Shown in pieces: positions 6,142 through 58,591 of a stretch of DNA of 64,000 nt. Source of the DNA: Escherichia phage DCP80; sequence record PQ671644.1; one strand, 5' to 3'. Under the pieces are notes generated by a model, which was not told where the DNA came from, made no database searches, and saw only the letters and a list, made by a program, of their open reading frames with translations. Position 1 is the stretch's first letter; the number at the start of each line of letters is the position of its first letter. The position numbers and the translations under genes are program-made.

Positions 6142-6142
6142 A

Positions 6143-8377: not shown

Positions 8378-8384
8378 GTTTTTC

Positions 8385-8594: not shown

Positions 8595-8853
8595 TCTCCT
8601 GTAATATTTTTCTCATACTACGCATGGTAGCTTTATGTTCTTGGTCATGGTATATCAATGCAAGGAGTGCTTCAATTCGCTCCTCAGGGACCTTCTGGCC
8701 AGCCTTAATTCTCATGGCTGATGTTCTTACAGCTAACAAGTAACTTCGCTTCCTGTCGTTATCTGGGAGCCCCTGCACTTTCCTCAGACCTGCTTCCATA
8801 ATACACCGTGCGACATTTTGCAGATTAACTAAACTTCCGTCAGACATAATCAT
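8569..8853 (-). CDS. hypothetical protein
   Basis: 94-aa ORF; conserved in second copy at 11065-11349. Confidence 0.5.
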   Translation of the reverse strand: MIMSDGSLVNLQNVARCIMEAGLRKVQGLPDNDRKRSYLLAVRTSAMRIKAGQKVPEERIEALLALIYHDQEHKATMRSMRKILQEIGNDELQS

Positions 8854-8900
8854 ATTTTCACCTCAAAGACATCTTAACACACTTTTTGTGGCTTGTACAT

Positions 8901-8926
8901 AATAAAAAGGTCTCCCGAAGGAGACC
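8901..8926 (-). terminator. rho-independent terminator with UUCG tetraloop
   Basis: Minus strand GGTCTCC-TTCG-GGAGACC followed by TTTTTATT. Confidence 0.6.
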
Positions 8927-8936
8927 AAATTTTATT

Positions 8937-8993
8937 CTACTTTATAGACTTGACCATACGCCATGAAAGTTTCACCTTCCCAGGTTTCGCACG
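8937..8993 (-). CDS. 3' end of small ORF downstream of gene 39 (cut by gap)
   Basis: Encodes ...CETWEGETFMAYGQVYKVE, identical to the end of the ORF at 10842-10986. Confidence 0.4.
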   Translation of the reverse strand, partial: RAKPGKVKLSWRMVKSIK

Positions 8994-9040
8994 NNNNNNN
9001 NNNNNNNNNNNNNNNNNNNNNNNNNNNNNNNNNNNNNNNN
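8994..9040. other. assembly gap (N-run); junction between inverted homologous blocks
   Basis: 47 Ns; flanking sequence truncates gene 39 and its downstream ORF. Confidence 0.95.
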
Positions 9041-24760: not shown

Positions 24761-24910
24761 ACGAATCTGACGTTTAGTCGGTCGCGCAACGTAAGCTTGT
24801 GTAGTTACTCGTCCAAAAACACCATACTTAGGCGAAGGAGTATCAATAAAGACTTCCCACTGGCAAGAGTAGCTATATATTGCTTTAGAGAATTGGGTCA
24901 AAACAAACAT
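24761..24910 (-). CDS. hypothetical protein, 3' end lost in gap
   Basis: MFVLTQFSKAIYSYS...; ATG embedded in TTAATATG junction with upstream gene. Confidence 0.4.
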
Positions 24911-24911
24911 A

Positions 24912-25271
24912 TTAACCTCGCTTCATGAAGGCATTAAAAATCTGGTCATCAATATCAGTAGGCGGTTCTTGAGCTTTGACCCAAGCCCCTTCCAGAATGT
25001 CATTCGCTTCAGTAGATAACATGACCCCAATTTCGGGGTTTCCCGTTATCCAGGCGGCGCAATCACGTACATTCTTTTTATCAAATGGATAGCCACGAGT
25101 ATCTTCATAAGGTCCATTCATTACCAGGAATGAGCGAGCCTTTATGATAATATCATCTTTAACGATAATATAACCAATCGCTTGATTAAACTGAGGGTCG
25201 CGGAATTCATAATGAGCATTACCATCATTATTGCTCGCCAGTTCAAAATTCAGAAAATTGTAATCATTCAT
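24912..25271 (-). CDS. hypothetical protein with shared C-terminal module DDQIFNAFMKR
   Basis: 119-aa ORF; last 13 codons plus stop/start junction are nucleotide-identical to the end of the upstream gene. Confidence 0.5.
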   Translation of the reverse strand: MNDYNFLNFELASNNDGNAHYEFRDPQFNQAIGYIIVKDDIIIKARSFLVMNGPYEDTRGYPFDKKNVRDCAAWITGNPEIGVMLSTEANDILEGAWVKAQEPPTDIDDQIFNAFMKRG

Positions 25272-25272
25272 A

Positions 25273-25707
25273 TTAATCTCGCTTCATGAAGGCATTAAAA
25301 ATCTGGTCGTCAACTGAATATACAGGGGTTTCCAGAAGTTTCAAAAGACTGTTTTTGATGTACTTACCCGGGATACCCTTAACAATACTGTCATTCAACT
25401 CATTATCAGGGTTGATGTCTTTAAATTCAAACCCGTCAAACTCAACCTTGTCAGGAATACCGTCAGCGAAAAAATAAACCAATTGGTGCATTGTATTGCG
25501 CGAAAATAATTTAGACTTGACCGCAATAAGTTCTTGCCAATGGTTTAATTCTTTGTTAAGAAGTTTATGAGCAAACGTAATTCTATTATCACTATCAACA
25601 AGAAAATAACCCAGGTATTGAATCTCGTCGCTCCAAAACACCCTGTATGCCTGCGCATTTGGATTTTTACAACGAAGTTTTTTGATAACCAAATTTCTGT
25701 TAATCAT
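25273..25707 (-). CDS. hypothetical protein with shared C-terminal module DDQIFNAFMKR
   Basis: Probable start MINRNLVIKK at 25707, 1 nt after sp stop, GGTGA RBS; track ORF extends into sp. Confidence 0.5.
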   Translation of the reverse strand: MINRNLVIKKLRCKNPNAQAYRVFWSDEIQYLGYFLVDSDNRITFAHKLLNKELNHWQELIAVKSKLFSRNTMHQLVYFFADGIPDKVEFDGFEFKDINPDNELNDSIVKGIPGKYIKNSLLKLLETPVYSVDDQIFNAFMKRD

Positions 25708-25708
25708 T

Positions 25709-26002
25709 TTATTCACCTGTAACCCATTGAACAATTTTGCTATTGTCAAATGAAGCATCGCAATACAGAATATAGTTATACTGCATAACGTCACCAGAAG
25801 ACAATTGGTCAGATACTTCTTTAACCATATCAGGGCGGTCACGTTTGGTTATGTTCATGATATCAGCACGAATCTGGGTTTCAACTTCAGATTGCTCTGC
25901 TGTCATAGACCATTCACAAAGGTTTTTATCAAGCCCAGCAGTAACTGGAGCTGTACCACATGATGCTACGGTAAGAATTGCTGCAATAATTAACTTTTTC
26001 AT
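25709..26002 (-). CDS. sp: Spackle-like periplasmic protein (lysozyme inhibitor / superinfection exclusion)
   Basis: 97 aa; signal peptide MKKLIIAAILTVASC, then ...DKNLCEWSMTAEQSEVETQIRADIMNI...GDVMQYNYILYCD resembles recalled T4 Sp; lies between 41 and 61. Confidence 0.6.
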   Translation of the reverse strand: MKKLIIAAILTVASCGTAPVTAGLDKNLCEWSMTAEQSEVETQIRADIMNITKRDRPDMVKEVSDQLSSGDVMQYNYILYCDASFDNSKIVQWVTGE

Positions 26003-26062
26003 AATGTTCTCCTCAGTAGTTGATATGGATAATATACTGCATTATCCCTTTGATGTAAACTG

Positions 26063-26266
26063 TTATTTTTCGTTAGAACGATAATCACATTCAAAAACTT
26101 TATTGCCATTAACAAAGGCTTTAACCAGCGCATTATTCACTTCTGCATACTGCACTGTAACCCATTCAATCATATTTTTGTCACTGACATCCAGGGCGGT
26201 TTCTTTGGTAAACATATTACCATTTTCAAACCAACCAATAAACACTACGTTCTCTAATTTATACAT
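26063..26266 (-). CDS. dmd: Dmd-like antitoxin (discriminator of mRNA degradation)
   Basis: 67 aa; VVFIGWFENGNMFTKE...QYAEVNNALVKAFV resembles recalled T4 Dmd; synteny near sp. Confidence 0.5.
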   Translation of the reverse strand: MYKLENVVFIGWFENGNMFTKETALDVSDKNMIEWVTVQYAEVNNALVKAFVNGNKVFECDYRSNEK

Positions 26267-26584
26267 TTAGATTTCCTCACAAAACGCCCAAGCGGCGTGA
26301 TAAACTGTTGCGCCTTTAGTATCATTTAAACAAACCACGTCAACAGGTGCAATCACACGATAAAGACGGGGTTCTCCTCCATATGAGCGAGCTGCTCTTC
26401 CTGCATAGATACGCGCCAAACCAATATCTTCAGTAAAAAACACACGCCCTAAATTTTTCTTACGTCCAACTTCTGACAGAACACCAGTTGCATCAGGAGG
26501 ACAAAGCATATTTTGGATTCCAGCATTAGAGCTTGACCCATGATAATAAACTTTGTATTCTGCCTTGCAATCAATGGTTTTCAT
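26267..26584 (-). CDS. small protein with PARP-like NAD-binding motifs (candidate minimal ADP-ribosyltransferase-fold protein)
   Basis: 105 aa; YYHGSSSNAGI (H-G-S), GRVFFTEDIGLARIYAG (aromatic-rich strand), GGEPRLYRV (candidate catalytic E); motif-level only. Confidence 0.35.
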   Translation of the reverse strand: MKTIDCKAEYKVYYHGSSSNAGIQNMLCPPDATGVLSEVGRKKNLGRVFFTEDIGLARIYAGRAARSYGGEPRLYRVIAPVDVVCLNDTKGATVYHAAWAFCEEI

Positions 26585-26620
26585 TTTATTCTCCAGTAGT
26601 TGATAGAGTCATTATAACAT

Positions 26621-26644
26621 AAGAAAAAGGGGCTGTAAGCCCCT
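26621..26644 (-). terminator. rho-independent terminator
   Basis: Minus strand AGGGGC-TTACA-GCCCCT followed by TTTTTCTT. Confidence 0.5.
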
Positions 26645-26652
26645 TTGTTCAC

Positions 26653-26955
26653 TTACGCCAACTCATAGTTGTGCATAGTCAGACAACGAATTTTCCCAGT
26701 AGTTGGGTGCATAACAGTCACACTAATTGTGTAATCATCACACACGTTAACAAAAGGTTCAGCGATAACATATACTGCCCCACCCGCCAACAGGTATTCA
26801 CGAAGAGAGCTGCGAACAGATGAAGGTTGAACATCGCTTTTGAGCTTTATTAATTTACCAGTTTGAATGCCTGATGCGATAAGAGCAGCACAGTTTTCAT
26901 CACGGCGAGCGAATTGTCCAAAATAGTAACGATTCATGTCGGTTTGATTAAACAT
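26653..26955 (-). CDS. hypothetical protein
   Basis: 100-aa ORF. Confidence 0.45.
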   Translation of the reverse strand: MFNQTDMNRYYFGQFARRDENCAALIASGIQTGKLIKLKSDVQPSSVRSSLREYLLAGGAVYVIAEPFVNVCDDYTISVTVMHPTTGKIRCLTMHNYELA

Positions 26956-27033
26956 ATGGTTTTCCTTTTAACAGTTGGTTTATTGTGTAACTCAGTATGA
27001 AATCATTATGTCCTAAGACAAGGGGCTTGTACA

Positions 27034-27282
27034 CTATTTTAATTCATTAATTAAATGAAAATCTTGTGCATTGAAAGTAATGAAAAAATAATCATTCCCT
27101 TCAACTGAAGCATGACAGGCAACACTACACCAGCGCCTTGCTCTGTTCAAGGAGCAATCCAAAATTTTAAAAGGCTTCAGACCAACAATGGCAGCTGTTC
27201 TTTTATTATGCTCACAAATATCAGCATACTTTTGGAGAGCTTCTTCAGATTTGAACTGGTAATGCACATTAACTAATAACAT
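27034..27282 (-). CDS. hypothetical protein
   Basis: 82-aa ORF, Cys-rich. Confidence 0.45.
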   Translation of the reverse strand: MLLVNVHYQFKSEEALQKYADICEHNKRTAAIVGLKPFKILDCSLNRARRWCSVACHASVEGNDYFFITFNAQDFHLINELK

Positions 27283-27347
27283 TTTATTATCCTCATCAGT
27301 AGTTGATGGGATAATAGTACACCCTTTTTATGGTGATGTAAACCTCT

Positions 27348-27376
27348 AAAATGAAAAAGACCCGAAGGGTCTTTAG
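27348..27376 (-). terminator. rho-independent terminator with UUCG tetraloop after gene 41
   Basis: Minus strand AAAGACCC-TTCG-GGTCTTT then TTCATTT; overlaps gp41 stop. Confidence 0.5.
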
Positions 27377-28812
27377 AATTTCATTTGAGCAGCAAGGTCG
27401 TCCAGGTCGCTCCTGTTGACCCTGGTTTGTCTATTCATTTCAGCCTGGCGATTCATCTCACCGGTGGCTTCTTTAACCGTAGGGCCTTGTTTAGGAGCTG
27501 AATCATCATCAACCTCGTACCAGCGCTGATTACCTTTCTTAACACCCATCTTGAATTTATTATAGTAGTTCTTATCGCCATAACGAGACTTAAGCTGTTT
27601 GATTAACTGCAGACCCATTTGAGCGAATTCTTCAGTCTCAACAACACCCAACATAAAGTCGGCCGTGTGAGCAATACCAAAGGATTCTGCGATGTCAGCC
27701 ATATCAATCTCAGCTGCAACGTTCGCGCCCCTGGTTGTCTGTGCTGCAGTCCACAGGACCACATTTTTCTCAACAGCCAGACCACGAAGTTCTTCTGCAA
27801 CCATCTTAATCAGGCCGTAACTGTTTTCGGTAAACGTTTTCAGTCTTGAGCTTGCACAGATTGCCAGGTAGTCAACAATAATCACATCCGGCACAAACCC
27901 TTGCTTCAGTTTGTATTCATTCAATAATGCACGGAAGGTATCTGCATGAGCACCGCCAGTTGGATATTGTTTTATCTTCAGAGTCCCAAGAGTCCCTGAT
28001 GCCCGCCATTTTTCCATCTTAGCTTTGTATTCTGCCCATGATATATGACCTTCATCAATATCATCCAGAGACACATCCAGCAAGTTGGCATCAATACGTT
28101 TGGCACATACTTCTTCAGCCATTTCCATGCTTATATAAAGCACGTTATGACCAGTCTGAAGATAGTCGGCCGCTAACGAACAAAGTCCCAGAGATTTCCC
28201 GACGTTTGTCCCGGCCAGTAAAACGTTCTCTGTGCCGTACTCAACTCCACCCTTCGTAATTTTATTCAGGATGTTAATACGGAACGGAACCTTCTTCGAT
28301 TTGTTCAGATAAGTCTGGAATCGAGCTTCGTAATCGTTTAACCAGTCATGGCCCAGTGCAGAGTCAAAACAGATAGACAATGCATCGCGCATGATATCAG
28401 GGATAGCACCAATATCTGGGATTCGTTTATCACGTTTATCTTTCGGAAGTTCGGCATTACTCTGGATTTCGATAATCCTGGATGTGGCATTGAACATCGC
28501 AGACTTCTGTACATACTTCTCGGTTTCTCTAACCAACCATTCCTGGTCTTCTGGAGTATCAGCCAGAACTCCTAAGAGTTTCTTTGTGCCTTCATATTCG
28601 ACTTCAGAAAGGTCAGAACTGTCAAGCGCAATATCAAGTGCAGTCTTAGTTGGTACCGCTTGATATTCTTTTACGTGTTCGTTAATCGTATTAAAAAGGG
28701 TCTTTGCAGGACCCTTTTCAAAATATGTGTTATTCAGATATGGCCAGACTTTAACAAAATATTCCTTGTTAAAGAGTAGCTGGGATAAAATAGTTTCTAC
28801 CACTTCCACCAC
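27373..28812 (-). CDS. 41: replicative DNA helicase gp41 (DnaB-like)
   Basis: 479 aa; Walker A GTNVGKS, Walker B IIVDYL, ...LGTLKIKQYPTGGA..., RecA-like C-terminal domain; matches recalled T4 gp41. Confidence 0.9.
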   Translation of the reverse strand: MVEVVETILSQLLFNKEYFVKVWPYLNNTYFEKGPAKTLFNTINEHVKEYQAVPTKTALDIALDSSDLSEVEYEGTKKLLGVLADTPEDQEWLVRETEKYVQKSAMFNATSRIIEIQSNAELPKDKRDKRIPDIGAIPDIMRDALSICFDSALGHDWLNDYEARFQTYLNKSKKVPFRINILNKITKGGVEYGTENVLLAGTNVGKSLGLCSLAADYLQTGHNVLYISMEMAEEVCAKRIDANLLDVSLDDIDEGHISWAEYKAKMEKWRASGTLGTLKIKQYPTGGAHADTFRALLNEYKLKQGFVPDVIIVDYLAICASSRLKTFTENSYGLIKMVAEELRGLAVEKNVVLWTAAQTTRGANVAAEIDMADIAESFGIAHTADFMLGVVETEEFAQMGLQLIKQLKSRYGDKNYYNKFKMGVKKGNQRWYEVDDDSAPKQGPTVKEATGEMNRQAEMNRQTRVNRSDLDDLAAQMKF

Positions 28813-29141
28813 CTCTTTTTCATTTTAATTTTATCAATTTCATCTTGTATTTGCATTGTAACACACTTTTCTACATGCACTGCAAGCTCCGCTTTGCGGT
28901 CTTCAGAAGGGGTGCCGAAATCAACTGAAACTTTTCCAGATGGTTCAATTTTAATTCCGGTTACGTACACAATGTGACTGGACCCATCAGGGAGTGATAA
29001 CAGAATTTCCTGCCGTACAGTTCCCATGGATTGCCGGATAATCTCCAAACTTTTTTCGTAGTAAGGTACAGAAGGAGCCTTAGCTCCCTCCGCATCTTTC
29101 TCGAAATTATCTAAATCAGATAAATCGATATCATTCATCAA
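28797..29141 (-). CDS. 40: gp40-like protein
   Basis: 114-aa ORF between uvsX and 41 with overlapping junctions; synteny-based. Confidence 0.55.
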   Translation of the reverse strand: MMNDIDLSDLDNFEKDAEGAKAPSVPYYEKSLEIIRQSMGTVRQEILLSLPDGSSHIVYVTGIKIEPSGKVSVDFGTPSEDRKAELAVHVEKCVTMQIQDEIDKIKMKKRWWKW

Positions 29142-30309
29142 GGTCTTCCATCATATCTAAATCGTTTTCGATATCTGCCGCAGACGGTTTTGTCTTACCT
29201 TCAGGAGCAGTGTATTTTTCAACCTTGGAGGCAATAAGCGCATCAACTTCGGCATCAACAACAGCATTGCTATCGATTGCACCCAGTTGGTAATGGCGTT
29301 TGATTGCATCACGGAAAGGTTCGTGCTTGAACAGCGGGCCCCAGAATTCGGTGCAGTTAGTATCTTTTGCGCGCCATGATTTTTCTTCGCGGACCATTTC
29401 ACCGGTCTCAACATCAAGATATTCACGGTTATACCAACCAACTTTTGGTTTCACCACAAATCCGATTTCCATTGCCATATCAAGCAGGCCAGAATACGGG
29501 TCAATCCCACCATCGAATTTTACATCAATGAAGAATTTACTTTTCTCTTTGACCATACGAGATTTTTCGGCGTTCAGAACAAATTGGAAGCCTTCAAGTT
29601 CTTTACCAGTTTCTTTAATCTGGCGTTTGCCGATAATGAATACGGTGTCCGCAGAATACATAACACCTGTACCGCCGGTCATAACGGTTTTACTGTACAT
29701 CTCAATCGTCTCGATTGTATGGTTAACCGCGACACAAGGAATATCCTTGATGCTAAAATACGGGGTAACAATACGGAACAGAGATTTCAGGGATTTGGCA
29801 CGAGTCATATCACCAACGACTTTTTCGTTCATCGCATCTTCTGTTTCTTTTTTCGACGCCATGTTACCGATTGAGTCAATAAAAATAATGACTTTTTCAC
29901 CACGCTCAATTGCTTCAAGCTGGTTAACCATATCAACTTTCAATTGTTCAACCGACTGGATTGGTGTATGGATAACACGTTCCGGGTCAACTTTCATTGC
30001 ACGAAGATATGCTTCTGTGATACCAAATTCTGAATCATAGAACAAACAGATTGCATCGGGGTATTTGTTCATATATGCAGAGACCATCGTTAAACCCATA
30101 TTGGATTTAAAGTGTTTTGACGGACCAGCAAAAATAGTCAAACCTGACTGCATACCACCATCTAGTGCACCGCTGATTGCAATGTTCAGCATCGGGATTT
30201 TTGTACGAACTACATCTTTACCATTAAAGAACTTGGACTTGGTAAGAGTCGCGGTCATTTTGGATGTAGAAGCTTTAATCAAACGGGATTTCAAATCTGC
30301 AATAGACAT
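29131..30309 (-). CDS. uvsX: recombinase UvsX (RecA-like)
   Basis: 392 aa; LKSRLIKASTSK...KIPMLNIAISGALDGGMQSGLTIFAGPSKHFKSN...LFYDSEFGIT...MVREEKSWRAKDTNCTEFWGPLFKHEPFRDAIKRHYQLG matches recalled T4 UvsX. Confidence 0.9.
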   Translation of the reverse strand: MSIADLKSRLIKASTSKMTATLTKSKFFNGKDVVRTKIPMLNIAISGALDGGMQSGLTIFAGPSKHFKSNMGLTMVSAYMNKYPDAICLFYDSEFGITEAYLRAMKVDPERVIHTPIQSVEQLKVDMVNQLEAIERGEKVIIFIDSIGNMASKKETEDAMNEKVVGDMTRAKSLKSLFRIVTPYFSIKDIPCVAVNHTIETIEMYSKTVMTGGTGVMYSADTVFIIGKRQIKETGKELEGFQFVLNAEKSRMVKEKSKFFIDVKFDGGIDPYSGLLDMAMEIGFVVKPKVGWYNREYLDVETGEMVREEKSWRAKDTNCTEFWGPLFKHEPFRDAIKRHYQLGAIDSNAVVDAEVDALIASKVEKYTAPEGKTKPSAADIENDLDMMEDLDE

Positions 30310-41800: not shown

Positions 41801-41818
41801 TGGGTCAAAACAAACATA

Positions 41819-42178
41819 TTAACCTCGCTTCATGAAGGCATTAAAAATCTGGTCATCAATATCAGTAGGCGGTTCTTGAGCTTTGACCCAAGCCCCTTCC
41901 AGAATGTCATTTGCTTCAGTAGATATCATGACCCCAATTTCAGGGTTTCCGGTTATCCATACTGCACAATCGCGGACATTCTTTTTATCAAATGGATAAC
42001 CACGATTATCTTCACAAGGCCCATTCATTGTCATAAATGAACGAGCCTTTATGATAACATCATCTTTAACGATAATATAACCAATCGCCTGATTATAACG
42101 AGGCTCACGAAATTCATAGTGAGCATTACCATTATTATTGCTCACCAGTTCAAAATTCAGAAAATTATAATAACTCAT
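41819..42178 (-). CDS. hypothetical protein with shared C-terminal module (copy 2)
   Basis: 119 aa, homolog of 24912-25271. Confidence 0.5.
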   Translation of the reverse strand: MSYYNFLNFELVSNNNGNAHYEFREPRYNQAIGYIIVKDDVIIKARSFMTMNGPCEDNRGYPFDKKNVRDCAVWITGNPEIGVMISTEANDILEGAWVKAQEPPTDIDDQIFNAFMKRG

Positions 42179-42179
42179 A

Positions 42180-42620
42180 TTAATCTCGCTTCATGAAGGC
42201 ATTAAAAATTTGGTCGTCAACTGAATATACAGGGGTTTCCAGAAGTTTCAAAAGACTGTTTTTAATGTACTTACCCGGGATACCCATATTAACAATACTG
42301 TCATTCAATTCATTATCAGGGTTGATGTCTTTAAATTCAAACCCATCAAATTCAACCTTGTCAGGAATACCATCAGCGAAAAAATAAACCAATTGGTGCA
42401 TTGTATTGCGCGAAAATAATTTAGACTTGACCGCAATAAGTTCTTGCCAATGGTTTAATTCTTTGTTAAGAAGTTTATGAGCAAACGTAATTCTATTATC
42501 ACTATCAACAAGAAAATAACCCAGGTATTGAATGGGTTCGTCGCTCCAAAACATCCTGTATGCTTGTGCATTTTGATTTTTACAACGAAGTTTTTTGATA
42601 ACTAGAGTTCTGTTAATCAT
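42180..42620 (-). CDS. hypothetical protein with shared C-terminal module (copy 2)
   Basis: Homolog of 25273-25707 with two in-frame indels (DEPIQY vs DEIQY; VNMGIPG vs VKGIPG). Confidence 0.5.
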   Translation of the reverse strand: MINRTLVIKKLRCKNQNAQAYRMFWSDEPIQYLGYFLVDSDNRITFAHKLLNKELNHWQELIAVKSKLFSRNTMHQLVYFFADGIPDKVEFDGFEFKDINPDNELNDSIVNMGIPGKYIKNSLLKLLETPVYSVDDQIFNAFMKRD

Positions 42621-42621
42621 T

Positions 42622-42915
42622 TTATTCACCTGTAACCCATTGAACAATCTTGCTGTTGTCAAATGAAGCATCGCAATACAGAACATAGTTATACTGCATA
42701 ACATCACCAGAAGTCAATTGGTCAGATACTTCTTTAACCATATCAGGACGGTCACGTTTAGTAATATTCATGATGTCAGCATAAATCTGATGTTCAACAT
42801 CAGCCTGGTCAGCAGTCATGGACCACTCGCAAAGGTCTTTATCAAGTCCAGCAGTAACTGGAGCTGTGCCACATGATGCTACGGTAAGAATTGCTGCGAT
42901 TAATAACTTTTTCAT
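42622..42915 (-). CDS. sp: Spackle-like periplasmic protein (copy 2)
   Basis: 97 aa, homolog of 25709-26002. Confidence 0.6.
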   Translation of the reverse strand: MKKLLIAAILTVASCGTAPVTAGLDKDLCEWSMTADQADVEHQIYADIMNITKRDRPDMVKEVSDQLTSGDVMQYNYVLYCDASFDNSKIVQWVTGE

Positions 42916-42973
42916 TTCAATCTCCTCAGTAGTTGATAGGGATAATATACTGCATTATCCCTATGTTGTACAC

Positions 42974-43177
42974 TTATTTTTCGTTAGAACGATAATCATA
43001 TTCAAAAACTTTATTGTCATTAACAAAGGCTTTAACCAGTGCATTATTCACTTCTGCATACTGCACTGTAATCCATTCAATCATATTTTTGTCACTGACA
43101 TCTAGCGCGGTTTCTTTGGTAAACATATTACCATTTTCAAACCAACCAATAAACACTACGTTCTCTAATTTATACAT
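42974..43177 (-). CDS. dmd: Dmd-like antitoxin (copy 2)
   Basis: 67 aa, homolog of 26063-26266. Confidence 0.5.
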   Translation of the reverse strand: MYKLENVVFIGWFENGNMFTKETALDVSDKNMIEWITVQYAEVNNALVKAFVNDNKVFEYDYRSNEK

Positions 43178-43495
43178 TTAGATTTCCTCACAAAACGCCC
43201 AGGCGGCGTGATAAACTGTTGCACCTTTAGTGTCATTTAAACAAACCACGTCAACAGGTGCAATCACACGATAAAGACGGGGTTCTCCTCCATATGAGCG
43301 AGCTGCTCTTCCTGCATAGATACGCGCCAAACCAATATCTTCAGTAAAAAACACACGCCCTAAATTTTTCTTACGCCCAACTTCTGACAGAACACCAGTT
43401 GCATCAGGAGGACAAAGCATATTTTGGATTCCAGCATTAGAGCTTGAGCCATGATAATAAACTTTGTATTCTGCCTTGCAATCAATGGTTTTCAT
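43178..43495 (-). CDS. PARP-like-motif small protein (copy 2)
   Basis: 105 aa, identical in translation to 26267-26584. Confidence 0.35.
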   Translation of the reverse strand: MKTIDCKAEYKVYYHGSSSNAGIQNMLCPPDATGVLSEVGRKKNLGRVFFTEDIGLARIYAGRAARSYGGEPRLYRVIAPVDVVCLNDTKGATVYHAAWAFCEEI

Positions 43496-43563
43496 TTTAT
43501 TCTCCAGTAGTTGATAGGGTCATTATAACATAAGAAAAAGGGGCTTACAGCCCCTTTGTTCAC

Positions 43564-43866
43564 TTACGCCAACTCATAGTTGTGCATAGTCAGACAACGA
43601 ATTTTCCCAGTAGTTGGGTGCATAACAGTCACACTAATTGTGTAATCATCACACACGTTAACAAAAGGTTCGGCGATAACATATACTGCCCCACCTGCCA
43701 ACAGGTACTCACGAAGAGAGCTGCGAACAGATGAAGGTTGAACATCGCTTTTGAGCTTTATTAATTTACCAGTTTGAATGCCTGATGCGATAAGAGCAGC
43801 ACAGTTTTCATCACGGCGAGCGAACTGACCAAAATAGTAACGGTTCATATCGGTTTGATTAAACAT
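43564..43866 (-). CDS. hypothetical protein (copy 2)
   Basis: 100 aa, homolog of 26653-26955. Confidence 0.45.
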   Translation of the reverse strand: MFNQTDMNRYYFGQFARRDENCAALIASGIQTGKLIKLKSDVQPSSVRSSLREYLLAGGAVYVIAEPFVNVCDDYTISVTVMHPTTGKIRCLTMHNYELA

Positions 43867-43944
43867 ATGGTTTTCCTTTTAACAGTTGGTTTATTGTGTA
43901 ACTCAGTATGGAATCATTATGTCCTAAGACAAGGGGCTTGTACA

Positions 43945-44193
43945 CTATTTTAATTCATTAATTAAATGAAAATCTTGTGCATTGAAAGTAATGAAAAAAT
44001 AATCATTCCCTTCAACTGAAGCATGACAGGCAACACTACACCAGCGCCTTGCTCTGTTCAAGGAGCAATCCAAAATTTTAAAAGGCTTCAGACCAACAAT
44101 GGCAGCTGTTCTTTTATTATGCTCACAAATATCAGCATACTTTTGGAGAGCTTCTTCAGATTTGAACTGGTAATGCACATTAACTAATAACAT
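43945..44193 (-). CDS. hypothetical protein (copy 2)
   Basis: 82 aa, homolog of 27034-27282. Confidence 0.45.
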   Translation of the reverse strand: MLLVNVHYQFKSEEALQKYADICEHNKRTAAIVGLKPFKILDCSLNRARRWCSVACHASVEGNDYFFITFNAQDFHLINELK

Positions 44194-44281
44194 TTTATTA
44201 TCCTCATCAGTAGTTGATGGGATAATAGTACACCCTTTTTATGGTGATGTAAACCTCTAAATGAAAAAGACCCGAAGGTCT

Positions 44282-45721
44282 TTAGAATTTCATTTGAGCA
44301 GCAAGGTCGTCCAGGTCGCTCCTGTTGACCCTGGTTTGTCTATTCATTTCAGCCTGACGATTCATCTCACCGGTGGCTTCTTTAACCGTAGGGCCTTGTT
44401 TAGGAGCTGAATCATCATCAACCTCGTACCAGCGCTGATTACCTTTCTTAACACCCATCTTGAATTTATTATAGTAGTTCTTATCGCCATAACGAGACTT
44501 AAGCTGTTTGATTAACTGTAGTCCCATTTGAGCGAATTCTTCGGTCTCAACAACACCCAACATAAAGTCGGCCGTGTGAGCAATACCAAAGGATTCTGCG
44601 ATGTCAGCCATATCAATCTCAGCTGCAACGTTCGCACCCCTGGTTGTCTGCGCTGCAGTCCACAGGACTACATTTTTCTCAACAGCCAGACCACGAAGTT
44701 CTTCTGCAACCATCTTAATCAGGCCGTAACTGTTTTCGGTAAACGTTTTCAGTCTTGAGCTTGCACAGATTGCCAGGTAGTCAACAATAATCACATCCGG
44801 CACAAACCCTTGCTTCAGTTTGTATTCATTCAATAATGCACGGAAGGTATCTGCATGAGCGCCGCCAGTTGGATATTGTTTTATCTTCAGAGTCCCAAGA
44901 GTCCCGGAAGCACGCCACTTTTCCATCTTAGCTTTATATTCCGCCCATGATATATGACCTTCATCAATATCATCCAGAGATACATCCAGCAAGTTGGCAT
45001 CAATACGTTTGGCACATACTTCTTCAGCCATTTCCATGCTTATATAAAGAACATTATGACCAGTCTGAAGATAGTCAGCAGCTAACGAACAAAGTCCAAG
45101 AGATTTACCGACGTTTGTCCCGGCCAGTAAAACGTTCTCTGTACCGTACTCAACCCCACCCTTTGTGATTTTATTCAGGATGTTAATACGGAACGGAACC
45201 TTCTTCGATTTGTTCAGATAAGTCTGGAATCGAGCTTCGTAATCGTTTAACCAGTCATGGCCCAGAGCAGAGTCAAAACAGATAGACAATGCATCGCGCA
45301 TGATGTCGGGGATAGCACCAATATCCGGGATTCGTTTATCACGTTTATCTTTCGGAAGTTCGGCATTACTCTGGATTTCGATAATCCTGGATGTGGCATT
45401 GAACATCGCAGACTTCTGCACATACTTCTCGGTTTCTTTAACCAACCATTCCTGGTCTTCTGGAGTATCGGCCAGGACTCCTAAGAGTTTCTTTGTGCCT
45501 TCATATTCGACTTCAGAAAGGTCAGAACTGTCGAGCGCGATATCAAGTGCAGTCTTAGTTGGTACCGCTTGATATTCTTTTACGTGTTCGTTAATCGTAT
45601 TAAAAAGAGTCTTCGCGGGACCCTTTTCAAAATATGTGTTATTCAGATACGGCCAGACTTTAACAAAATATTCCTTGTTAAAGAGTAGCTGGGATAAAAT
45701 AGTTTCTACCACTTCCACCAC
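44282..45721 (-). CDS. 41: replicative DNA helicase gp41 (copy 2)
   Basis: 479 aa, near-identical to 27373-28812. Confidence 0.9.
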   Translation of the reverse strand: MVEVVETILSQLLFNKEYFVKVWPYLNNTYFEKGPAKTLFNTINEHVKEYQAVPTKTALDIALDSSDLSEVEYEGTKKLLGVLADTPEDQEWLVKETEKYVQKSAMFNATSRIIEIQSNAELPKDKRDKRIPDIGAIPDIMRDALSICFDSALGHDWLNDYEARFQTYLNKSKKVPFRINILNKITKGGVEYGTENVLLAGTNVGKSLGLCSLAADYLQTGHNVLYISMEMAEEVCAKRIDANLLDVSLDDIDEGHISWAEYKAKMEKWRASGTLGTLKIKQYPTGGAHADTFRALLNEYKLKQGFVPDVIIVDYLAICASSRLKTFTENSYGLIKMVAEELRGLAVEKNVVLWTAAQTTRGANVAAEIDMADIAESFGIAHTADFMLGVVETEEFAQMGLQLIKQLKSRYGDKNYYNKFKMGVKKGNQRWYEVDDDSAPKQGPTVKEATGEMNRQAEMNRQTRVNRSDLDDLAAQMKF

Positions 45722-46050
45722 CTCTTTTTCATTTTAATTTTATCAATTTCATCTTGTATTTGCATTGTAACACACTTTTCTACATGCACAGCAAGCTCCG
45801 CTTTGCGGTCTTCAGAAGGGGTGCCGAAATCAACTGAAACTTTTCCAGATGGTTCAATTTTAATTCCGGTTACGTACACAATGTGACTGGACCCATCAGG
45901 GAGTGATAACAGAATTTCCTGTCGTACGGTTCCCATGGATTGCCGGATAATCTCCAAACTTTTTTCGTAGTAAGGTACAGAAGGAGCCTTAGCTCCCTCC
46001 GCATCTTTCTCGAAATTATCTAAATCAGATAAATCGATATCATTCATCAA
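45706..46050 (-). CDS. 40: gp40-like protein (copy 2)
   Basis: 114 aa, identical in translation to 28797-29141. Confidence 0.55.
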   Translation of the reverse strand: MMNDIDLSDLDNFEKDAEGAKAPSVPYYEKSLEIIRQSMGTVRQEILLSLPDGSSHIVYVTGIKIEPSGKVSVDFGTPSEDRKAELAVHVEKCVTMQIQDEIDKIKMKKRWWKW

Positions 46051-47030
46051 GGTCTTCCATCATATCTAAATCGTTTTCGATATCTGCCGCAGACGGTTTT
46101 GTCTTACCTTCAGGAGCAGTGTATTTTTCAACCTTGGAGGCAATAAGCGCATCAACTTCGGCATCAACAACAGCATTGCTATCGATTGCACCCAGCTGGT
46201 AATGGCGTTTGATTGCGTCACGGAAAGGTTCGTGCTTGAACAACGGGCCCCAGAATTCGGTGCAGTTAGTATCTTTTGCGCGCCATGATTTTTCTTCGCG
46301 GACCATTTCACCGGTCTCAACATCAAGATATTCACGGTTATACCAACCAACTTTCGGTTTCACCACAAATCCGATTTCCATTGCCATATCAAGCAGGCCA
46401 GAATACGGGTCAATACCGCCATCGAATTTTACATCAATGAAGAATTTACTTTTCTCTTTGACCATACGAGATTTTTCGGCGTTCAGAACAAATTGGAAAC
46501 CTTCAAGTTCTTTACCAGTTTCTTTAATCTGGCGTTTGCCGATAATGAATACGGTGTCTGCGGAATACATAACACCTGTACCACCGGTCATAACGGTTTT
46601 GCTATACATCTCAATCGTCTCGATTGTATGGTTAACCGCGACACAAGGAATATCCTTGATGCTAAAATATGGAGTAACAATACGGAACAGAGATTTCAGG
46701 GATTTGGCACGAGTCATATCGCCAACAACTTTTTCGTTCATCGCATCTTCTGTTTCTTTTTTCGACGCCATGTTACCGATTGAGTCAATAAAGATAATGA
46801 CTTTTTCACCACGCTCAATTGCTTCAAGCTGGTTAACCATATCAACTTTCAATTGTTCAACCGACTGGATTGGTGTGTGGATAACACGTTCCGGGTCAAC
46901 TTTCATTGCACGAAGATAGGCTTCTGTGATACCAAATTCTGAATCATAGAACAAACAGATTGCATCGGGGTATTTGTTCATATATGCAGAGACCATCGTT
47001 AAACCCATATTGGATTTAAAGTGTTTTGAC
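46040..47030 (-). CDS. uvsX: recombinase UvsX (copy 2), 5' end lost in gap
   Basis: C-terminal ~330 aa, near-identical to the 29131-30309 copy. Confidence 0.85.
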
Positions 47031-53251: not shown

Positions 53252-56200
53252 TTAATTTAATTTAGCTTCAAGTTCTCTAACTTTAGCCGACAGGGTTTTA
53301 ACTGCTTCAATTAACAGAGCAACTTGTGCCTGAGTCGAAACTGTCAGAACCATATTTTCCTGCGAATCTAAAGACTCATGCACCGCTTCAGGTAATACTT
53401 CTTTAAGATTCTGAGCAATAACACCTGCTTCAGTTTGAACCGCTTCACCACCGATATATTCAGCTTTATCATAGATTAAACCGTCGAGCTGTTCAACCTT
53501 TTCAAGAGCATTTTCAATAGGCCTGAAGTTTGATTTCAAACGAATGTCAGAACGAATATAAACGTTTGGAGCATTTATATTTTTATATGAGTACAAATCA
53601 CCGTTTTGGAAACGGAAAGTCTGTACGCCATTCGCATATATGTCTAATAATCCATCGCCATTTTGCTTAATACCGGTATCACTATCGCCAATTGTTATAC
53701 TACTTCCACCGAGTGAGTTAGTTGTATTAACACCAAAGGCACTTGTTTGTGGCATCTGTACTTTACCCGGGCAATCTAAAATGCCATCCATTGTAAATCG
53801 CCATCTTGCTTGTTGGCCGTTAGCGTTATCTCCGCGAATACGAATAATACCTTCTCGCCAACCAGCTGTGGTACCAGAGCCGACCCATCCAAATTCAAAG
53901 GTTTGACGATATCCAGAGGAACCATAGTTGCTGTATGCACCTACAATAGGATAATAACTACCTGAATTAGATAAATCACCATGGTCTGCCATAAAGGTGA
54001 TTTTAGATTTCATTGTATCTGAGGTATCTCCCCAACCAGAGGCACCGCGCCAACCTGCAACCACACGAGACGAGATATTGCCTAAACTAGTATTACCACT
54101 GGTGACATTAAGGCCGCCCGCCACGTTCAGACCACCACCAGTAATATTCAGACCACTGCCCATGCCTACACGACCATCAGCCATGTTGATAGAGAAAGGT
54201 CTTAAGCCATTCCACAACCCGTCAGTTGCATTCGGGTTTTCTTCCGTGTTTTTATCCGTAACTAAAATATGAAAATTTTCACCGTCGTTTCTAATCAAAG
54301 CGGCATTAGAACCTATATCATTACCGCTGGATTTGATACGCATACCTTTTTGGTTATTGGTAACGTATTCACCACGTGTAACAATATCCGATTCGCCGGC
54401 AGCAAACATTCCGTCAATGTTGTTCAGCATTCTTACAGATTTACCTACAACATGACCTTCAGGTAATGTTTCTACCAAAGGCTGGACACCGCTATTAATA
54501 CCCACTACGGTTACTTTACTATTGCTACTGCATGTATATTCTACCGCCAAAGAATTAGAATACCCACCTAAGTAAACGTAAATATCATAGGTATCTTCGC
54601 TTGTATTAACAGAAGCAATCTGAGAAATAGCTTCAGAAGTTCTATTCCACAGCGTAGCATTAAGGCCTTTAGGGTTATTATTGCCGGTTCTAAGGACTAT
54701 TTCGGCTATTGAAGCCTGACCATAACTTTTAAAATTAAATCCAGAACCACCTGATATTTTAAAGGATGCTGTACCCGTCGCTTGTGGAATTTCTACAGTA
54801 GCAAATTTATACCAACCTGTAGTAGCGCCGCCAGCCCAACCGCCTGTGTTAACTTTACGGTCTAACGTTGTGTTCAGGTTTTTAAAGTTATCTAATGCAG
54901 TGCTGCCTGTAATATTACCGTCAGGACCAATACGAACATCGGAACCAATTTTAAGTGCCTTGGTTATATCAACAGTATCAGAGTTTAATGCAATACCATG
55001 GGAGTATGTATAGTTATGTAAACGAACAACGTTGCCGCCGTCGCCAATACCGAGATACCATTTTGTAACATCTGCTTTACGTCCTTGGATAAAGTTGGAT
55101 GATGCCTGGGATGAAGCATTTACCACAATGGCATCAGAATCCATATTAACACGCAGTCTACAGTCGGTCTGGACAAATTTACTTACGTTGTCTACTGTAA
55201 AAAGTGGACCATACCCGGCACTTTTATTCCCCATTATAACCGTGCCGGTGGCTAAATTGATAGATAGCGGACGAAGGTCACTTATTCCACCATTTTCTCC
55301 AGCGTTCTGAAGAGTAGGAATAAGATGGAATGAAGCAGAAGAACCTGTTTCTGAACGACGGAAAATCATACCATATTCGGCATTCCAAATTCTTAATGCA
55401 TCAGCGGTACCGCCTATTTTAACTTGACCGTTAAAAGTGGCGCCACCATTTATATTCAATCCGTTTGCTGAAGTGATACTACCTTCCGATGAAATACTAC
55501 CAGCAGTAGTCAATCCACCATTTACACGGAATTGAATAGAACCTACGGTTTGGGAACTTGTGGGAGCAACGCGTTGTGAATAAAAATGCCAACCCTGTCC
55601 ATCGCCTAATTCAAATACAGTTTCTCTGCTTTTATTAGTGTCATCCTCAAATGCGTTACCCCATACTTTCATGGTCACATAGCTTTTGTTCTGACCCGGG
55701 CGGGTGCCTGCGTTCCAAACAATCGTTTTTGTGCCATTGATAGTGGAAGAAGCGCCGAACTTTATACCTTTATTGTTGTTGTTAGTATTAAAAAATAATT
55801 CGTTATCTAATTTAACTGGTTGGGTCGAGGAAACTGTGCCATCGGCTCTAAGATTCAGTTCATTAACCCCGGTTTTAATATTCAAAATACCTGGTTCAAT
55901 AATCATGCCTTCTGCCATAGAAATGGCTACACGACCTGTACCACGGAAATAATGATAAAGTTTACCATTAGAATTATAACCTAAATGGGTTTGGCCATCC
56001 CCAGAGTTATTACCGTCTATTTCGGTTCTAATAGAAACCATAGAAGAGTTCTGGCCAGGCAGAAGCCAAGTAAGACCTTGGTCATTACTACGGCCAAATA
56101 TGGTTTTACTAGTCCCACGGAAGCCGTCGGAAGTAATAGATGCAACGGAATAACCTCCACCAACTAAATCATAAACACCTTGCTTAATATATTTCAGACC

Positions 56201-57004
56201 GGTTACAGTGTCACCGAGAACAAGATACTTATCGCCCATTACACCGACGTTACCATAATCACTAGACGGGAAACCCGTAGTGAATGTACCTAATGCAAGG
56301 CTATTACGGCCTGCCATTCGTCCGTCATTACGAATGCCATATTGTTTAGATGATGGAGTATTACCTGTCCACCATGACATTTCATCAGCTTGACCTGTCT
56401 GGGCGGTGCAAAGCTCATGCCACATAGTGCCACCAGACTTGGCGCGAACTTTACGAAGATAGTTTACACCATTCGTTTCGCCTGTGCCTGGGTATACATA
56501 ATTAACTAATGAATCTGTATCATATACACCAAAGGCTTTGCCACCGTGGATAACTGTATCGACTGCAATGCGTTTAGTTACTAATGAATCTGATGCTAAA
56601 ATACGGTTGGCCTGAAATTCACCACCATTTATAGAACGGAAATAGAATTCACTATTAGCAGTACCTTCTGTCCCCTGTTTAATCCTAATGCGTAATTCAC
56701 CAGCATTTGTAGTTTGAGGACGTGCATATATAACACCGCGTTCACTGCCATCAGCATTTTCAAACCATAAATGGGCATTTGATGTTGTATCGTTTGAAGC
56801 TCTTGAATAAAACGAGCCTTGCAACGCTCTAAAAGTTTGAGCCGAAATACTAGTGCCTGCTGTAATCGACCCGCTTGTAGAAAAGTTTCCAAAATTGTTT
56901 AATGGGCCGTTAATGCGTAAAGTTCCATTAATAGTTACATCCCCGTCAACCTGCCCACCTTTAGCAAAGCCCAAATCAATAATCTGTCCCTGGTCTGACT
57001 TAGT
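53252..57004 (-). CDS. 37: long tail fiber distal subunit gp37, N-terminus lost in gap, with C-terminal intramolecular-chaperone-like domain
   Basis: About 1250 aa of continuous frame; long beta-rich fiber repeats; C-terminus [17 protein letters not shown]...[11 protein letters not shown]...[19 protein letters not shown] resembles self-cleaving peptidase S74 chaperone modules; synteny 37-38-t. Confidence 0.8.
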
Positions 57005-57040
57005 NNNNNNNNNNNNNNNNNNNNNNNNNNNNNNNNNNNN
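57005..57040. other. assembly gap (N-run)
   Basis: 36 Ns. Confidence 0.95.
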
Positions 57041-57056
57041 GCGGAAAGGGGGTGTT

Positions 57057-57224
57057 ATGAAAACATTCAAAGATTTTATCAACGAAGATATGGTTGCAGG
57101 TGATGCAGGTGGAAACCCAACTAATATCACAACAGGTACCACTTCCGGGGCAGTTGTCAATAAAGGCCCTGAACAAATCCCATCAAAAAAGCGTAAGAAC
57201 AAAGACGATAAACCTACAGTATAA
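57057..57224 (+). CDS. small basic protein with N-terminal capsid-targeting-like sequence (candidate internal protein)
   Basis: 55 aa; AAGGGGG RBS; MKTFKDFINE resembles the T4 internal-protein CTS MKTYQEFIAE with an I-x-E cleavage motif; C-terminus KKRKNKDDKPTV. Confidence 0.45.
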   Translation: MKTFKDFINEDMVAGDAGGNPTNITTGTTSGAVVNKGPEQIPSKKRKNKDDKPTV

Positions 57225-57226
57225 TG

Positions 57227-57243
57227 GTCCTTCGGGGCCATTG
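57227..57243 (+). promoter_or_regulatory. UUCG tetraloop hairpin upstream of gene 61
   Basis: TGGTCC-TTCG-GGGCCA (one G-U pair), no U-run, 12 nt before the gene 61 RBS. Confidence 0.35.
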
Positions 57244-57256
57244 AAATGAGGAAACT

Positions 57257-58285
57257 ATGTCATATATTGATAAAGAATTTGCAGTCAGAGCTTTATCGTA
57301 TCAACCACGTTATAGAGAAGTCACCGGGAGCACATTTAAAGCAAACTGCAGATGTAAAGTTTGTGGCGACTCCCAGAAAGATTCACATAAAGCCAGATTC
57401 TGGGCGTATACTAATCCGGCTGATGGCGCGGTTTACGTGAAATGTTTTAACTGTGACTACTCCACGCATATAAGCAAATACATAAAAGAGTTTGAGCCGG
57501 ATTTGCACCGGGAATATATGGTTGAGAAGTACAAGGAGAACGCCTTCGGGCGACAACGCACTGAAGTTGTCGAAACTCCGAAAGAACCAGAAAAAACTCC
57601 GGTTATCGAACAGCTTGCTTTTTGTGAAAGACTCGATACTTTACCAGAAGCACATCCGATAGTTAAGTATGTAAAAAGTCGATGTATTCCAAGCAATGTT
57701 TGGAACCGGTTATGGTTTACAAACCAATGGCCCGCATTAGTTAACTCCGTCAATCCTGGGACGTATAAGAATGAAACGAATGAACCACGCTTGGTTATTC
57801 CTATCTTCAACGGCAAAAAAGAAATCGAATCTTTCCAAGGACGAGCTCTTCGCAAAGATGCACCACAAAAATATATCACAATCAAAGCTCACCCAGAAGC
57901 TTCCAAAGTCTATGGCGTAGACAAGATTGATGAGCGTAAACGCGTATGGGTAATGGAAGGTCCAATTGATAGTTTGTTTATCCCTAACAGCATTGCGATA
58001 ACTGGTGGCACATTGTCATTGGAAGCAGTTCCTTATGCTGAAACCAGAGTATGGGTAATGGACAACGAGCCAAGACATCCGGATACGATTAAACGTATGA
58101 AGAAGCTCGTTGAAGCTGGCGAAGCTGTTATGTTCTGGGACAATGCACCATGGCATACGAAAGACATAAATGAGATGGTTAAATCAGAAGGGGCAACCCC
58201 TGAACAAATCGAATCATATATGGCCGATAACGTTGCTCAAGGATTGATGGCGAGAATGCGACTTTCGAAGTACGCAAAAGTTTAG
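57257..58285 (+). CDS. 61: DNA primase gp61
   Basis: 342 aa; zinc ribbon C..C...C..C, ...IKEFEPDL.REY..., ...EPRLVIPI.N......SFQGRAL.KDAPQKYITI.A.PEA.K.YGV......V.V.EGPIDSLFI.N.IAITGG.L.LE.VP......VWV.DNEPRHPDTIKRM.KLV.AGE.VMFWD..PW..KD.N.M...EGATPEQI..YM..N.AQGLMA.MRLSKYAK match recalled T4 gp61. Confidence 0.9.
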   Translation: MSYIDKEFAVRALSYQPRYREVTGSTFKANCRCKVCGDSQKDSHKARFWAYTNPADGAVYVKCFNCDYSTHISKYIKEFEPDLHREYMVEKYKENAFGRQRTEVVETPKEPEKTPVIEQLAFCERLDTLPEAHPIVKYVKSRCIPSNVWNRLWFTNQWPALVNSVNPGTYKNETNEPRLVIPIFNGKKEIESFQGRALRKDAPQKYITIKAHPEASKVYGVDKIDERKRVWVMEGPIDSLFIPNSIAITGGTLSLEAVPYAETRVWVMDNEPRHPDTIKRMKKLVEAGEAVMFWDNAPWHTKDINEMVKSEGATPEQIESYMADNVAQGLMARMRLSKYAKV

Positions 58286-58393: not shown

Positions 58394-58591
58394 CTATATA
58401 AGGCCGATTAATGCTAGTGAAACATCTACAACTGATTCGAGCGCGACGACTGGCAATATAACACCATGTGCCAATGCAATAGGGGCAACAATGAAATTCC
58501 AGAGTAGAACAAAACAGAGTATCGAAAGGACCAGAATCGTTCGCTTACGACTGCCTTTGATGGCTTGAATTAGACTAGATAGTTTGAGCAT
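58394..58591 (-). CDS. antisense small hydrophobic protein
   Basis: 65-aa ORF on the opposite strand to all neighbours, strong AGGAGG RBS 7 nt upstream, two predicted hydrophobic segments. Confidence 0.35.
   Translation of the reverse strand: MLKLSSLIQAIKGSRKRTILVLSILCFVLLWNFIVAPIALAHGVILPVVALESVVDVSLALIGLI

Follow-up and report, generated by a model that had tools for sequence, protein, structure and literature searches.

What is a short gene that opens like a phage T4 internal protein doing beside a DNA primase gene? The question is raised by a 55-residue open reading frame (ORF) on the plus strand, at positions 57057-57224 of a 64,000-nucleotide stretch of Escherichia phage DCP80 (sequence record PQ671644.1; henceforth the window), just upstream of primase gene 61. 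A first-pass annotation of this DNA had likened the N-terminus of the predicted protein to the capsid targeting sequence (CTS) of the T4 internal proteins (IPs), and had proposed that the ORF was a new member of that group at a different locus and, as such, a candidate injected anti-defence protein. We found that the ORF, whose coordinates were exact, is the ortholog of T4 gene 61.1, a real gene that is already known and annotated and whose function is uncharacterised in T4, and that a large part of its product is homologous to the N-terminal part of capsid protein gp23. On balance, we consider it probable that gp61.1 is a late-made, prohead-targeted, protease-processed small head peptide.

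The orthology is evident at the level of both protein and locus. The amino-acid sequence of the window protein is 100% identical to that of phage P896 and 98% identical to VR7 gp61.1, and it matches the PHROG families of the short form (phrog_1823; E 8.2e-32, residues 1-52) and of the long form (phrog_2086; E 1.1e-15, residues 7-51) of the family described below. The DNA segment carrying 61.1 has an identity of 97.9% with Escherichia phage P896 and of 94-97% with SP18, VR7, VR20, VR25 and VR26; VR7 is classified as a Gaprivervirus (Tevenvirinae). The product of the ORF is the gp61.1-family member of a VR7-like (Gaprivervirus) phage of T4 type. In T4 itself, gp61.1 (NP_049649; UniProt P39228; MKTFKEFIKEDMVAGDSGGNPENISIGTTSGAVVNKGPEQIPKKKKEESKEKEE, with the start MKTFKEFIKEDMVAGDSGG) is a 54-residue ‘hypothetical protein’ encoded between 61.2 and 61. 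It is about 80% identical to the window protein, with which it shares the leader type (MKTFKEFIKE), the core and the site directly upstream of the primase gene, while its tail is different (KKKKEESKEKEE vs. KKRKNKDDKPTV).

Searches with tblastn located the peptide in 1,020-1,180 phage records, and the number of Escherichia-phage records with 61.1 (n = 607) equals the number with a gp23-type capsid gene (n = 607), meaning that 61.1 is near-universal in enterobacterial T4-like phages. Given that T4 and more than 1,000 phage records carry the gene, the ORF cannot count as a new member, and its locus is not new either: 61.1 lies directly upstream of gene 61 in the window, T4, VR7, KM16, Konradin, Cronus and VMC01/03, the exception being JSE, in which two small ORFs stand between the two genes. 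The possibility that the ORF is a chance reading frame or a gene remnant was ruled out by this conservation together with the pattern of synonymous and non-synonymous change. Specifically, across the 27-codon core, 15 codons differ between the window and T4 by synonymous changes only and 4 by replacements, i.e., the gene is under purifying selection. In the literature that we searched, gp61.1 is mentioned in gene tables and we found no functional study of it; the main text of the CRISPRi-ART preprint does not mention 61.1.

The homology to gp23 covers residues 2-38. In a BLASTP comparison, this part of T4 gp61.1 aligned without gaps to residues 57-93 of T4 gp23 at 46% identity (E 6e-9; KTFKEFIKE↓DMVAGDSGGNPENISIGTTSGAVVNKGP in gp61.1 and QAFGSFLTE↓AEIGGDHGYNATNIAAGQTSGAVTQIGP in gp23, where the arrow here and below marks the known or predicted cleavage site). 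The shared pattern, F-[LI]-x-E ↓ x-x-[IV]-[GA]-G-D-x-G-x-N-x-x-N-I-x-x-G-x-T-S-G-A-V-x-x-x-G-P, is likewise ungapped. When searched against all Protein Data Bank (PDB) sequences, both the window protein (phmmer; E 2.8e-4) and the family profile (E 3.3e-5) returned gp23 as the sole significant match, and hhalign of the family against the gp23 N-termini of 13 divergent phages gave a probability of 98% (E 1.5e-13) over 51 columns, corresponding to about residues 51-101 of gp23. In these alignments the I-x-E motif that ends the gp61.1 leader falls on the gp23 maturation site, L-T-E65↓A66, and the core that follows falls on gp23* residues 66-93. The latter include the 25-residue N-fist (gp23 residues 66-91; PMC7136217), which in the unexpanded head is disordered, lies inside and probably touches the scaffold, and which after expansion contacts four subunits and makes up the Soc site jointly with the I-domain linkers (PMC7136217, PMC9546572, PMC9958956).

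The window protein thus has a segment homologous to the end of the 65-residue gp23 propeptide, the LTE65↓A66 site and the N-fist; unlike gp23, it lacks both an HK97-fold body and a Pfam Gp23 hit, and carries a basic tail where gp23 runs into its N-arm. Indeed, Pfam gave no hit for either the short or the long forms of the family, and none for the short window protein even at E 10. Automatic pipelines, which noticed the likeness, have named several homologs ‘major capsid (domain-containing) protein’; because there is neither an HK97 body nor a Pfam hit, these labels mislead, and the anatomy set out here corrects both “major capsid protein” and “hypothetical protein” as database labels. The first-pass annotation was right about the CTS-type leader when it called the protein internal-protein-like, and it missed the gp23-homologous body. 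The N-fist segment of the phages’ own gp23 is nearly invariant, and so co-evolution with the 61.1 core offers no signal to compare. As a side observation, the likeness to gp23 is greater in certain family members than in the window protein, among them P0171 (71 aa) and the homolog of Erwinia phage Cronus (L008:2189-2656), with sequences such as IVEAE↓ISGDAGG and MVAGDSGYNAQNISSGVTSGAVT; this would be consistent with descent of the family from a gp23 N-terminal fragment.

The leader, read earlier as close to the IP targeting sequence and as containing an I-x-E motif, bore out both statements once aligned with the leaders of T4 and VR7. In T4, IPII and IPIII start with MKTYQEFIAE↓A and IPI with MKTFKEF...ITE↓A; the internal proteins of VR7 start with MKTYQEFITE↓S, MKTYQEFINE↓S/T, MLTYQEFITE↓A or MKTFNELFNE↓S. 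The window leader, MKTFKDFINE↓D, is identical to VR7 Ip6 (MKTYQEFINE) at 7 of 10 positions, and is closer to the IPs of its own genus than to those of T4. It has aromatic residues at positions 4 and 7 (F4 and F7) as well as I8 and E10; suppressor mutagenesis of IPIII showed that residues 4 and 7 matter for targeting, and residues 8 and 10 for processing (PMC9026906). A six-frame scan of the window, 58 kb of VR7 and 42 kb of T4 for M[KR][TS][FYW].[DEQ]F found IP genes and 61.1 and nothing else, and a rough composition estimate puts the chance of the full 10-residue motif at about 1e-8 per ORF. The window protein has in common with the T4 IPs and with VR7 Ip6/7/9/10 a leader of about 10 residues, MKT[YF]x[ED]F[IL]xE, for which the cut after [LI]-x-E is a prediction in the case of the window protein. 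What follows the leader is different: IPs carry diverse globular cargos of 70-190 aa at hypervariable loci, whereas the window protein carries a conserved, unstructured, gp23-like peptide of 45 residues at a fixed locus. Specifically, IP genes are hypervariable cassettes (PMC9026906), and VR7, which has eight different IP genes, keeps its IP cassettes elsewhere; 61.1 is fixed beside gene 61 and lies outside the variable-cargo cassettes near e/denV and the 57B/tRNA genes. The PHROG match of the window protein to internal virion proteins was insignificant (E 0.31). Taken together, the leader alignments suggest that the IP CTS, the segment that precedes the gp23 cleavage site (AFGSFLTE↓) and the gp61.1 leader may be versions of one ancestral docking-and-cleavage module. 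We also noted that T4 61.1 and T4 ipI share their first 22 nt exactly (ATGAAAACATTTAAAGAATTTA), which could reflect a leader exchange by recombination or merely AT-biased codon usage.

Across the family, one module stays constant while its surroundings vary: [LIVM]-x-E ↓ (D/E/S)M(V/T)AGD.GG...NI..G.T.G...N.GP followed by a Lys/Arg cluster. The window protein carries this conserved junction, and the columns invariant in the family are its E10, A14, G15, D16, I24, G27, G31, N35 and P38. Its remainder is, as described at first pass, short with a basic tail (residues 39-55, with a KKRK-type cluster). Short forms of 53-58 aa occur in T4, VR7, JS98, RB69, JSE and Jiaodavirus, with leaders including MKTYKEFVNE, MKSFKEVMNE, MKTYKEFVKLNE and MIGFKQFVEENKLKE. 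At the same genomic position, many genera, including Moonvirus, Roskildevirus and Acinetobacter Lazarusvirus, have a long form of about 155 aa (phrog_2086), in which a helical N-terminal domain of about 105 residues precedes the shared junction and core (…PLFE↓DMVAGD or …LIKE↓DMVAGD); the junction and core pattern is present in 28 long forms as well. Published gene tables also give KVP40 a gp61.1 of 159 aa at this position, a putative further long form. The core is conserved from Escherichia to Acinetobacter and Vibrio phages.

A profile search of 1.84 billion representative proteins at E <= 1e-3 returned 54 proteins and no more, which points to a small family restricted to phages of this kind. 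The top match of the exhaustive search, P0140 (1126 aa), was repetitive and unrelated, and was discarded. Profile searches with the long-form N-terminal domain found proteins of about 155-175 aa of the gp61.1 family and no others, a fold search with the long-form model (mean predicted local distance difference test score, pLDDT, 63) found family members and unnamed viral proteins and nothing else, and in a test for a split gene the ORFs upstream of 61.1 in T4 and VR7 showed no similarity to the long-form N-terminal domain. AlphaFold2 (AF2) predicted no fold for the window protein (predicted template modelling score, pTM, 0.15), and the core is disordered in the long-form model; such disorder is as expected of a peptide that becomes ordered solely on binding a partner, like the gp23 N-fist. 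Distant members (P0154, P0174, P0175 and the locus L029:2710-3447) have an extra conserved C-terminal domain of about 100 residues after the basic cluster (…FKQFVE…SFSFKAIGANSVVVEA…VWK), which looks like cargo placed behind a targeting, cleavage and N-fist module.

The gene is also flanked by signals of its own. In four lineages whose flanks are otherwise different, a perfect T4 late-promoter box, TATAAATA, lies 21-32 nt 5′ of the 61.1 start codon: at -24 in VR7, VR20, VR25 and VR26, at -21 both in VR5 and JS98 and in another lineage (about 175 kb), and at -32 in a more distant one. In these loci TATAAATA turns up about 1e-4 times per nt, and most of its other copies have soc, a true late gene, close by. 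The VR7-type upstream sequence reads ...GTTGTATAAATAGCGGAAAGGGGGTGTTATG, and because the window sequence resumes at GCGGAAAGG after the run of N letters (N-run) that precedes the ORF, the window’s own box would sit within that run. T4-type genomes (TATGAATA) and Acinetobacter phages (CATAAATA) each have a box one mismatch from the late consensus.

At the other end, a hairpin directly follows the 61.1 stop codon in nine lineages, anchored on ATGG ((T)ATAATGG), in which changes on both sides (C-G, T-A, A-T) preserve the pairing at stem positions 3-7. Beyond the window, it was found directly 3′ of the 61.1 stop in loci L010-L031, L005, L006 and L104. This covariation was read from an anchored pair table; MAFFT with RNAalifold on the spacer between 61.1 and 61 yielded no structure, with the variable loops misaligned. 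A T-run follows the hairpin in two lineages, the VR7 hairpin is not a canonical terminator, and T4-type genomes have no hairpin; T4 61.1 hence differs from the gene in the window in its one-mismatch box, in the lack of a 3′ hairpin and in a stop codon 2 nt from gene 61. A TATAAT-like sequence just before the hairpin is also conserved. Together, promoter and hairpin give the impression of a small late transcription unit set into the early replication cluster in the manner of soc: 61.1 and soc would both be short late genes with their own TATAAATA promoter in the same early-gene region, soc being a few kb downstream of 61.1. Soc differs in being a folded decoration protein that is not proteolytically processed and has no sequence relationship to 61.1.

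Evidence on processing comes from published liquid chromatography–tandem mass spectrometry (LC-MS/MS) of CsCl-purified virions of two Klebsiella Jiaodaviruses, ValerieMcCarty03 and ValerieMcCarty04 (PMC13119998). In phage 04, the homolog of 61.1 is WKM80554.1 (labelled ‘putative capsid protein’; MKTFKEFVKLNEEMVAGDAGGNPQNIASGTTSGAVVNKGPETLPKKKRDKSKPET), for which Supplementary Data S2 of that study lists three confident spectra: two peptide-spectrum matches (PSMs) to E.EMVAGDAGGNPQNIASGTTSGAVVNK.G, with scores of 89.9 and 65.2, and one to E.MVAGD...NK.G, with a score of 54.4. Peptides are given in that table with a single flanking residue at either end, which its Soc rows make plain, and since the flank here is E, the main N-terminus lies exactly after L-N-E12, the predicted protease site. 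The uncleaved, fully tryptic form, LNEEMV..., is absent, and cytoplasmic contaminants in the same table score 15-40 (PMC13119998). This Jiaodavirus N-terminus after L-N-E, seen in three PSMs from one of two phages, lends thin support to the virion presence of gp61.1 and to its cleavage after [LI]-x-E. For the window protein, the corresponding semi-tryptic peptide after a cut at E10 would be DMVAGDAGGNPTNITTGTTSGAVVNK, as opposed to the uncleaved FINEDMVAGD....

How would such a peptide be made and used? We propose that gp61.1 would be produced late from its own late promoter, the box being seen in relatives and expected in the window inside the N-run. Its CTS-like leader and gp23-like segment may then dock to the scaffolding core or to the inner shell, the behaviour also supposed for the IP leaders and for the N-terminus of gp23. 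Few morphogenetic pathways have been studied as well as T4 head assembly, yet the way in which proteins reach the scaffolding core is still called mysterious (PMC9958956). The prohead protease gp21 would cut after I-N-E10, a step that the virion N-terminus of the relative supports, and what remains in the filled head would be a basic peptide of about 45 residues with a free-standing gp23* N-fist copy as its core and a tail rich in Lys and Arg. The mature peptide would most likely bind the capsid lattice and/or DNA, which would favour a structural or morphogenetic role over that of a host-specific effector. In its more far-reaching version, which we put forward tentatively and regard as possible but doubtful, gp61.1 is an overlooked head component of T4-like phages, T4 included: a free-standing N-fist copy carried in by a CTS-type leader and freed by the maturation protease, which then sits at N-fist-type sites on the lattice or scaffold (e.g., where no gp23 N-fist is available) or with DNA via its basic tail. 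One speculative pointer is an unexplained helical density under gp24* in the expanded-head map, ascribed by its authors to a cleaved leader or other core fragment (PMC9546572).

Several observations weigh against the reading of gp61.1 as a head peptide. The three PSMs fall below the 15-PSM cut-off that the authors of the virion study applied, and the protein yields essentially one observable peptide; the PSMs come from one of two phages and from a genus other than that of the window phage, the stored data for the sister phage 03 hold no 61.1 peptide, and Soc N-termini are ragged in the same run (PMC13119998). In a whole-cell time course of T4 infection, the 61.1 transcript is early and the protein undetected (PMC9697503 Table S2); the transcripts of IPII and IPIII are also early in that table, and their proteins late. 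In the literature that we searched, neither mass spectrometry of T4 heads nor lists of cleavage sites mention gp61.1, and the published near-atomic T4 capsid maps report no extra N-fist-like density. Finally, T4-type genomes have the one-mismatch box and no hairpin, and the late promoter could also drive late expression of the primase.

The alternative proposed at first pass, that gp61.1 is an injected IPI-type effector which is packaged by its CTS, cleaved, ejected with the DNA and neutralises a host defence, draws on much of the same evidence: the CTS-like leader with its I-x-E site, a mature part that is basic like that of the IPs, a processed form in the virion preparation of a relative and, in P0154, P0174 and P0175, a cargo-like C-terminal domain. 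Nothing we found speaks for the anti-defence activity as such. We saw no similarity, in sequence or in fold, of the window protein to characterised defence inhibitors (e.g., IPI* against GmrSD), and the match to internal virion proteins was, as noted, insignificant. We rate this explanation as quite unlikely because the mature part, at 45 residues, has no domain or fold of its own and is conserved at one fixed locus across phages of very different hosts, while IPs are hypervariable; its sequence is, moreover, a paralog of a capsid-lattice element. A CTS-like N-terminus is by itself insufficient to call a protein an anti-defence effector.

Two further explanations are possible and fit the data less well than a head peptide does. 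Given that the homology covers exactly the gp23 maturation site and its flanks, gp61.1 may be an unpackaged, cytoplasmic mimic of the gp23 N-terminus, acting as a competitive substrate or regulator of the prohead protease, as a regulator of gp23 handling or as a decoy for a host sensor of the major capsid protein. The early T4 transcript and the position within the early replication cluster are in keeping with this. Sensing of gp23 peptides by host systems has a precedent in Lit, whose target, the Gol peptide (gp23 residues 93-122), lies just downstream of the gp61.1-like segment. That segment, however, does not overlap the Gol region, the cleaved form alone was seen, and in purified virions, and several lineages have a dedicated cassette of late promoter and hairpin, so that we hold a mimic to be unlikely, though somewhat less so than an effector. 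Very unlikely, in our view, is an accessory replication peptide tied to the primase gp61, e.g., one with a basic DNA-binding tail at the primosome. Its appeal is that 61.1 adjoins gene 61 in every lineage examined (with the two small ORFs between them in JSE, and as little as 2 nt from the gene 61 start in T4) and that the tail is Lys/Arg-rich; yet the homology is to a capsid protein and to no replication protein, a hairpin or terminator parts 61.1 from gene 61 in most lineages, there is a late promoter and the peptide was found in a virion preparation.

A small head peptide of the kind we favour would have company in T4. The small prohead-core proteins gp67 and gp68 and the 10-residue gp24 leader MAKINELLRE↓S are processed within the prohead, where gp21 cleaves after [LI]-x-E (PMC9546572, PMC9026906). 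The genes of gp67 and gp68 lie in the head cluster and not beside the primase, and sequence similarity to them was neither tested nor found. The anatomy of 61.1 (CTS-type leader, protease site, N-fist paralog and basic tail), the signals of its late unit and the processed peptide from virions in the supplement of another study appear to be undescribed. If the peptide is indeed in heads, the T4 head parts list gains a component, targeting and gp21 cleavage can be studied on a minimal substrate of natural origin, and the IP targeting sequence becomes linked to the capsid protein’s own propeptide.

The immediate surroundings of the gene are listed in Table 1. The first-pass annotation had warned that the context of an ORF beside an N-run was uncertain; this worry is now resolved. 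The left flank of the run is a distal long-tail-fibre subunit gene (gp37 type), which in complete genomes is far from gene 61 and whose nearest matches (fDHCT2, APCEc01, C6 and K3) are merely 87-92% identical, i.e., it diverges more than the rest of the segment. Because the run merely joins this gp37 fragment to the 61.1-61 segment, and because complete relatives give the order, the context of 61.1 is settled: 41 ... dmd ... sp ... 61.2, 61.4, ORF036c, 61.1, 61, then 56 and soc in the complete genome of VR7, and 41, dmd, 61.4, sp, 61.2, 61.1, 61 in T4. The upstream neighbours of 61.1 in complete relatives are thus small early-region ORFs. A 1329-aa minus-strand ORF at 53252-57241 was rejected as an artefact, since it comes about only where the frame runs on through the N-run into 61.1 antisense sequence.

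Table 1. Features of the 61.1 locus in the window (positions from the first nucleotide of the 64,000-nucleotide stretch).
Feature	Position	Strand	Remarks
N-run, 36 N	57005..57040		Joins two pieces that are not adjacent in the genome
Shine-Dalgarno-like purine run GGAAAGGGGG	57043..57052	+	4 nt 5′ of the ATG; same in VR7, VR20, VR25 and VR26
Gene 61.1 ortholog	57057..57224	+	55 aa and stop; translation MKTFKDFINEDMVAGDAGGNPTNITTGTTSGAVVNKGPEQIPSKKRKNKDDKPTV
Leader MKTFKDFINE, residues 1-10	57057..57086	+	CTS-like; predicted prohead-protease site at its end, I-N-E, with the cut following E10
Core DMVAGDAGGNPTNITTGTTSGAVVNKGP, residues 11-38	57087..57170	+	Paralog of the gp23* N-fist (gp23 residues 66-93)
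Tail EQIPSKKRKNKDDKPTV, residues 39-55	57171..57221	+	Basic, variable; KKRK-type cluster kept, variation after the cluster
Hairpin UAAUGGUCC-UUCG-GGGCCAUU	57222..57243	+	Overlaps the 61.1 stop codon; between 61.1 and gene 61; -12.8 kcal/mol
DNA primase gene 61	57257..58285	+	Constant downstream neighbour

Two observations concern the window beyond this locus. The window is a patchwork and not one contiguous genome: it contains ten N-runs (at 8994, 17791, 24743, 30887, 36511, 41760, 47031, 52286, 57005 and 61506) and duplicated pieces that are 95-98% identical and differ in orientation (e.g., 5175-8993 vs. 14740-10925, and 24894-30121 vs. 41801-47030), so that it looks like contigs of two related phages joined together. 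Between the primase and dCTPase genes, on the opposite strand, lies a 65-aa hydrophobic ORF (58394-58591, minus strand); a small opposite-strand ORF is annotated at the matching place in VR7 (ORF033w), KM16 and the ValerieMcCarty phages, and the product looks like a conserved, antisense-oriented small membrane protein.

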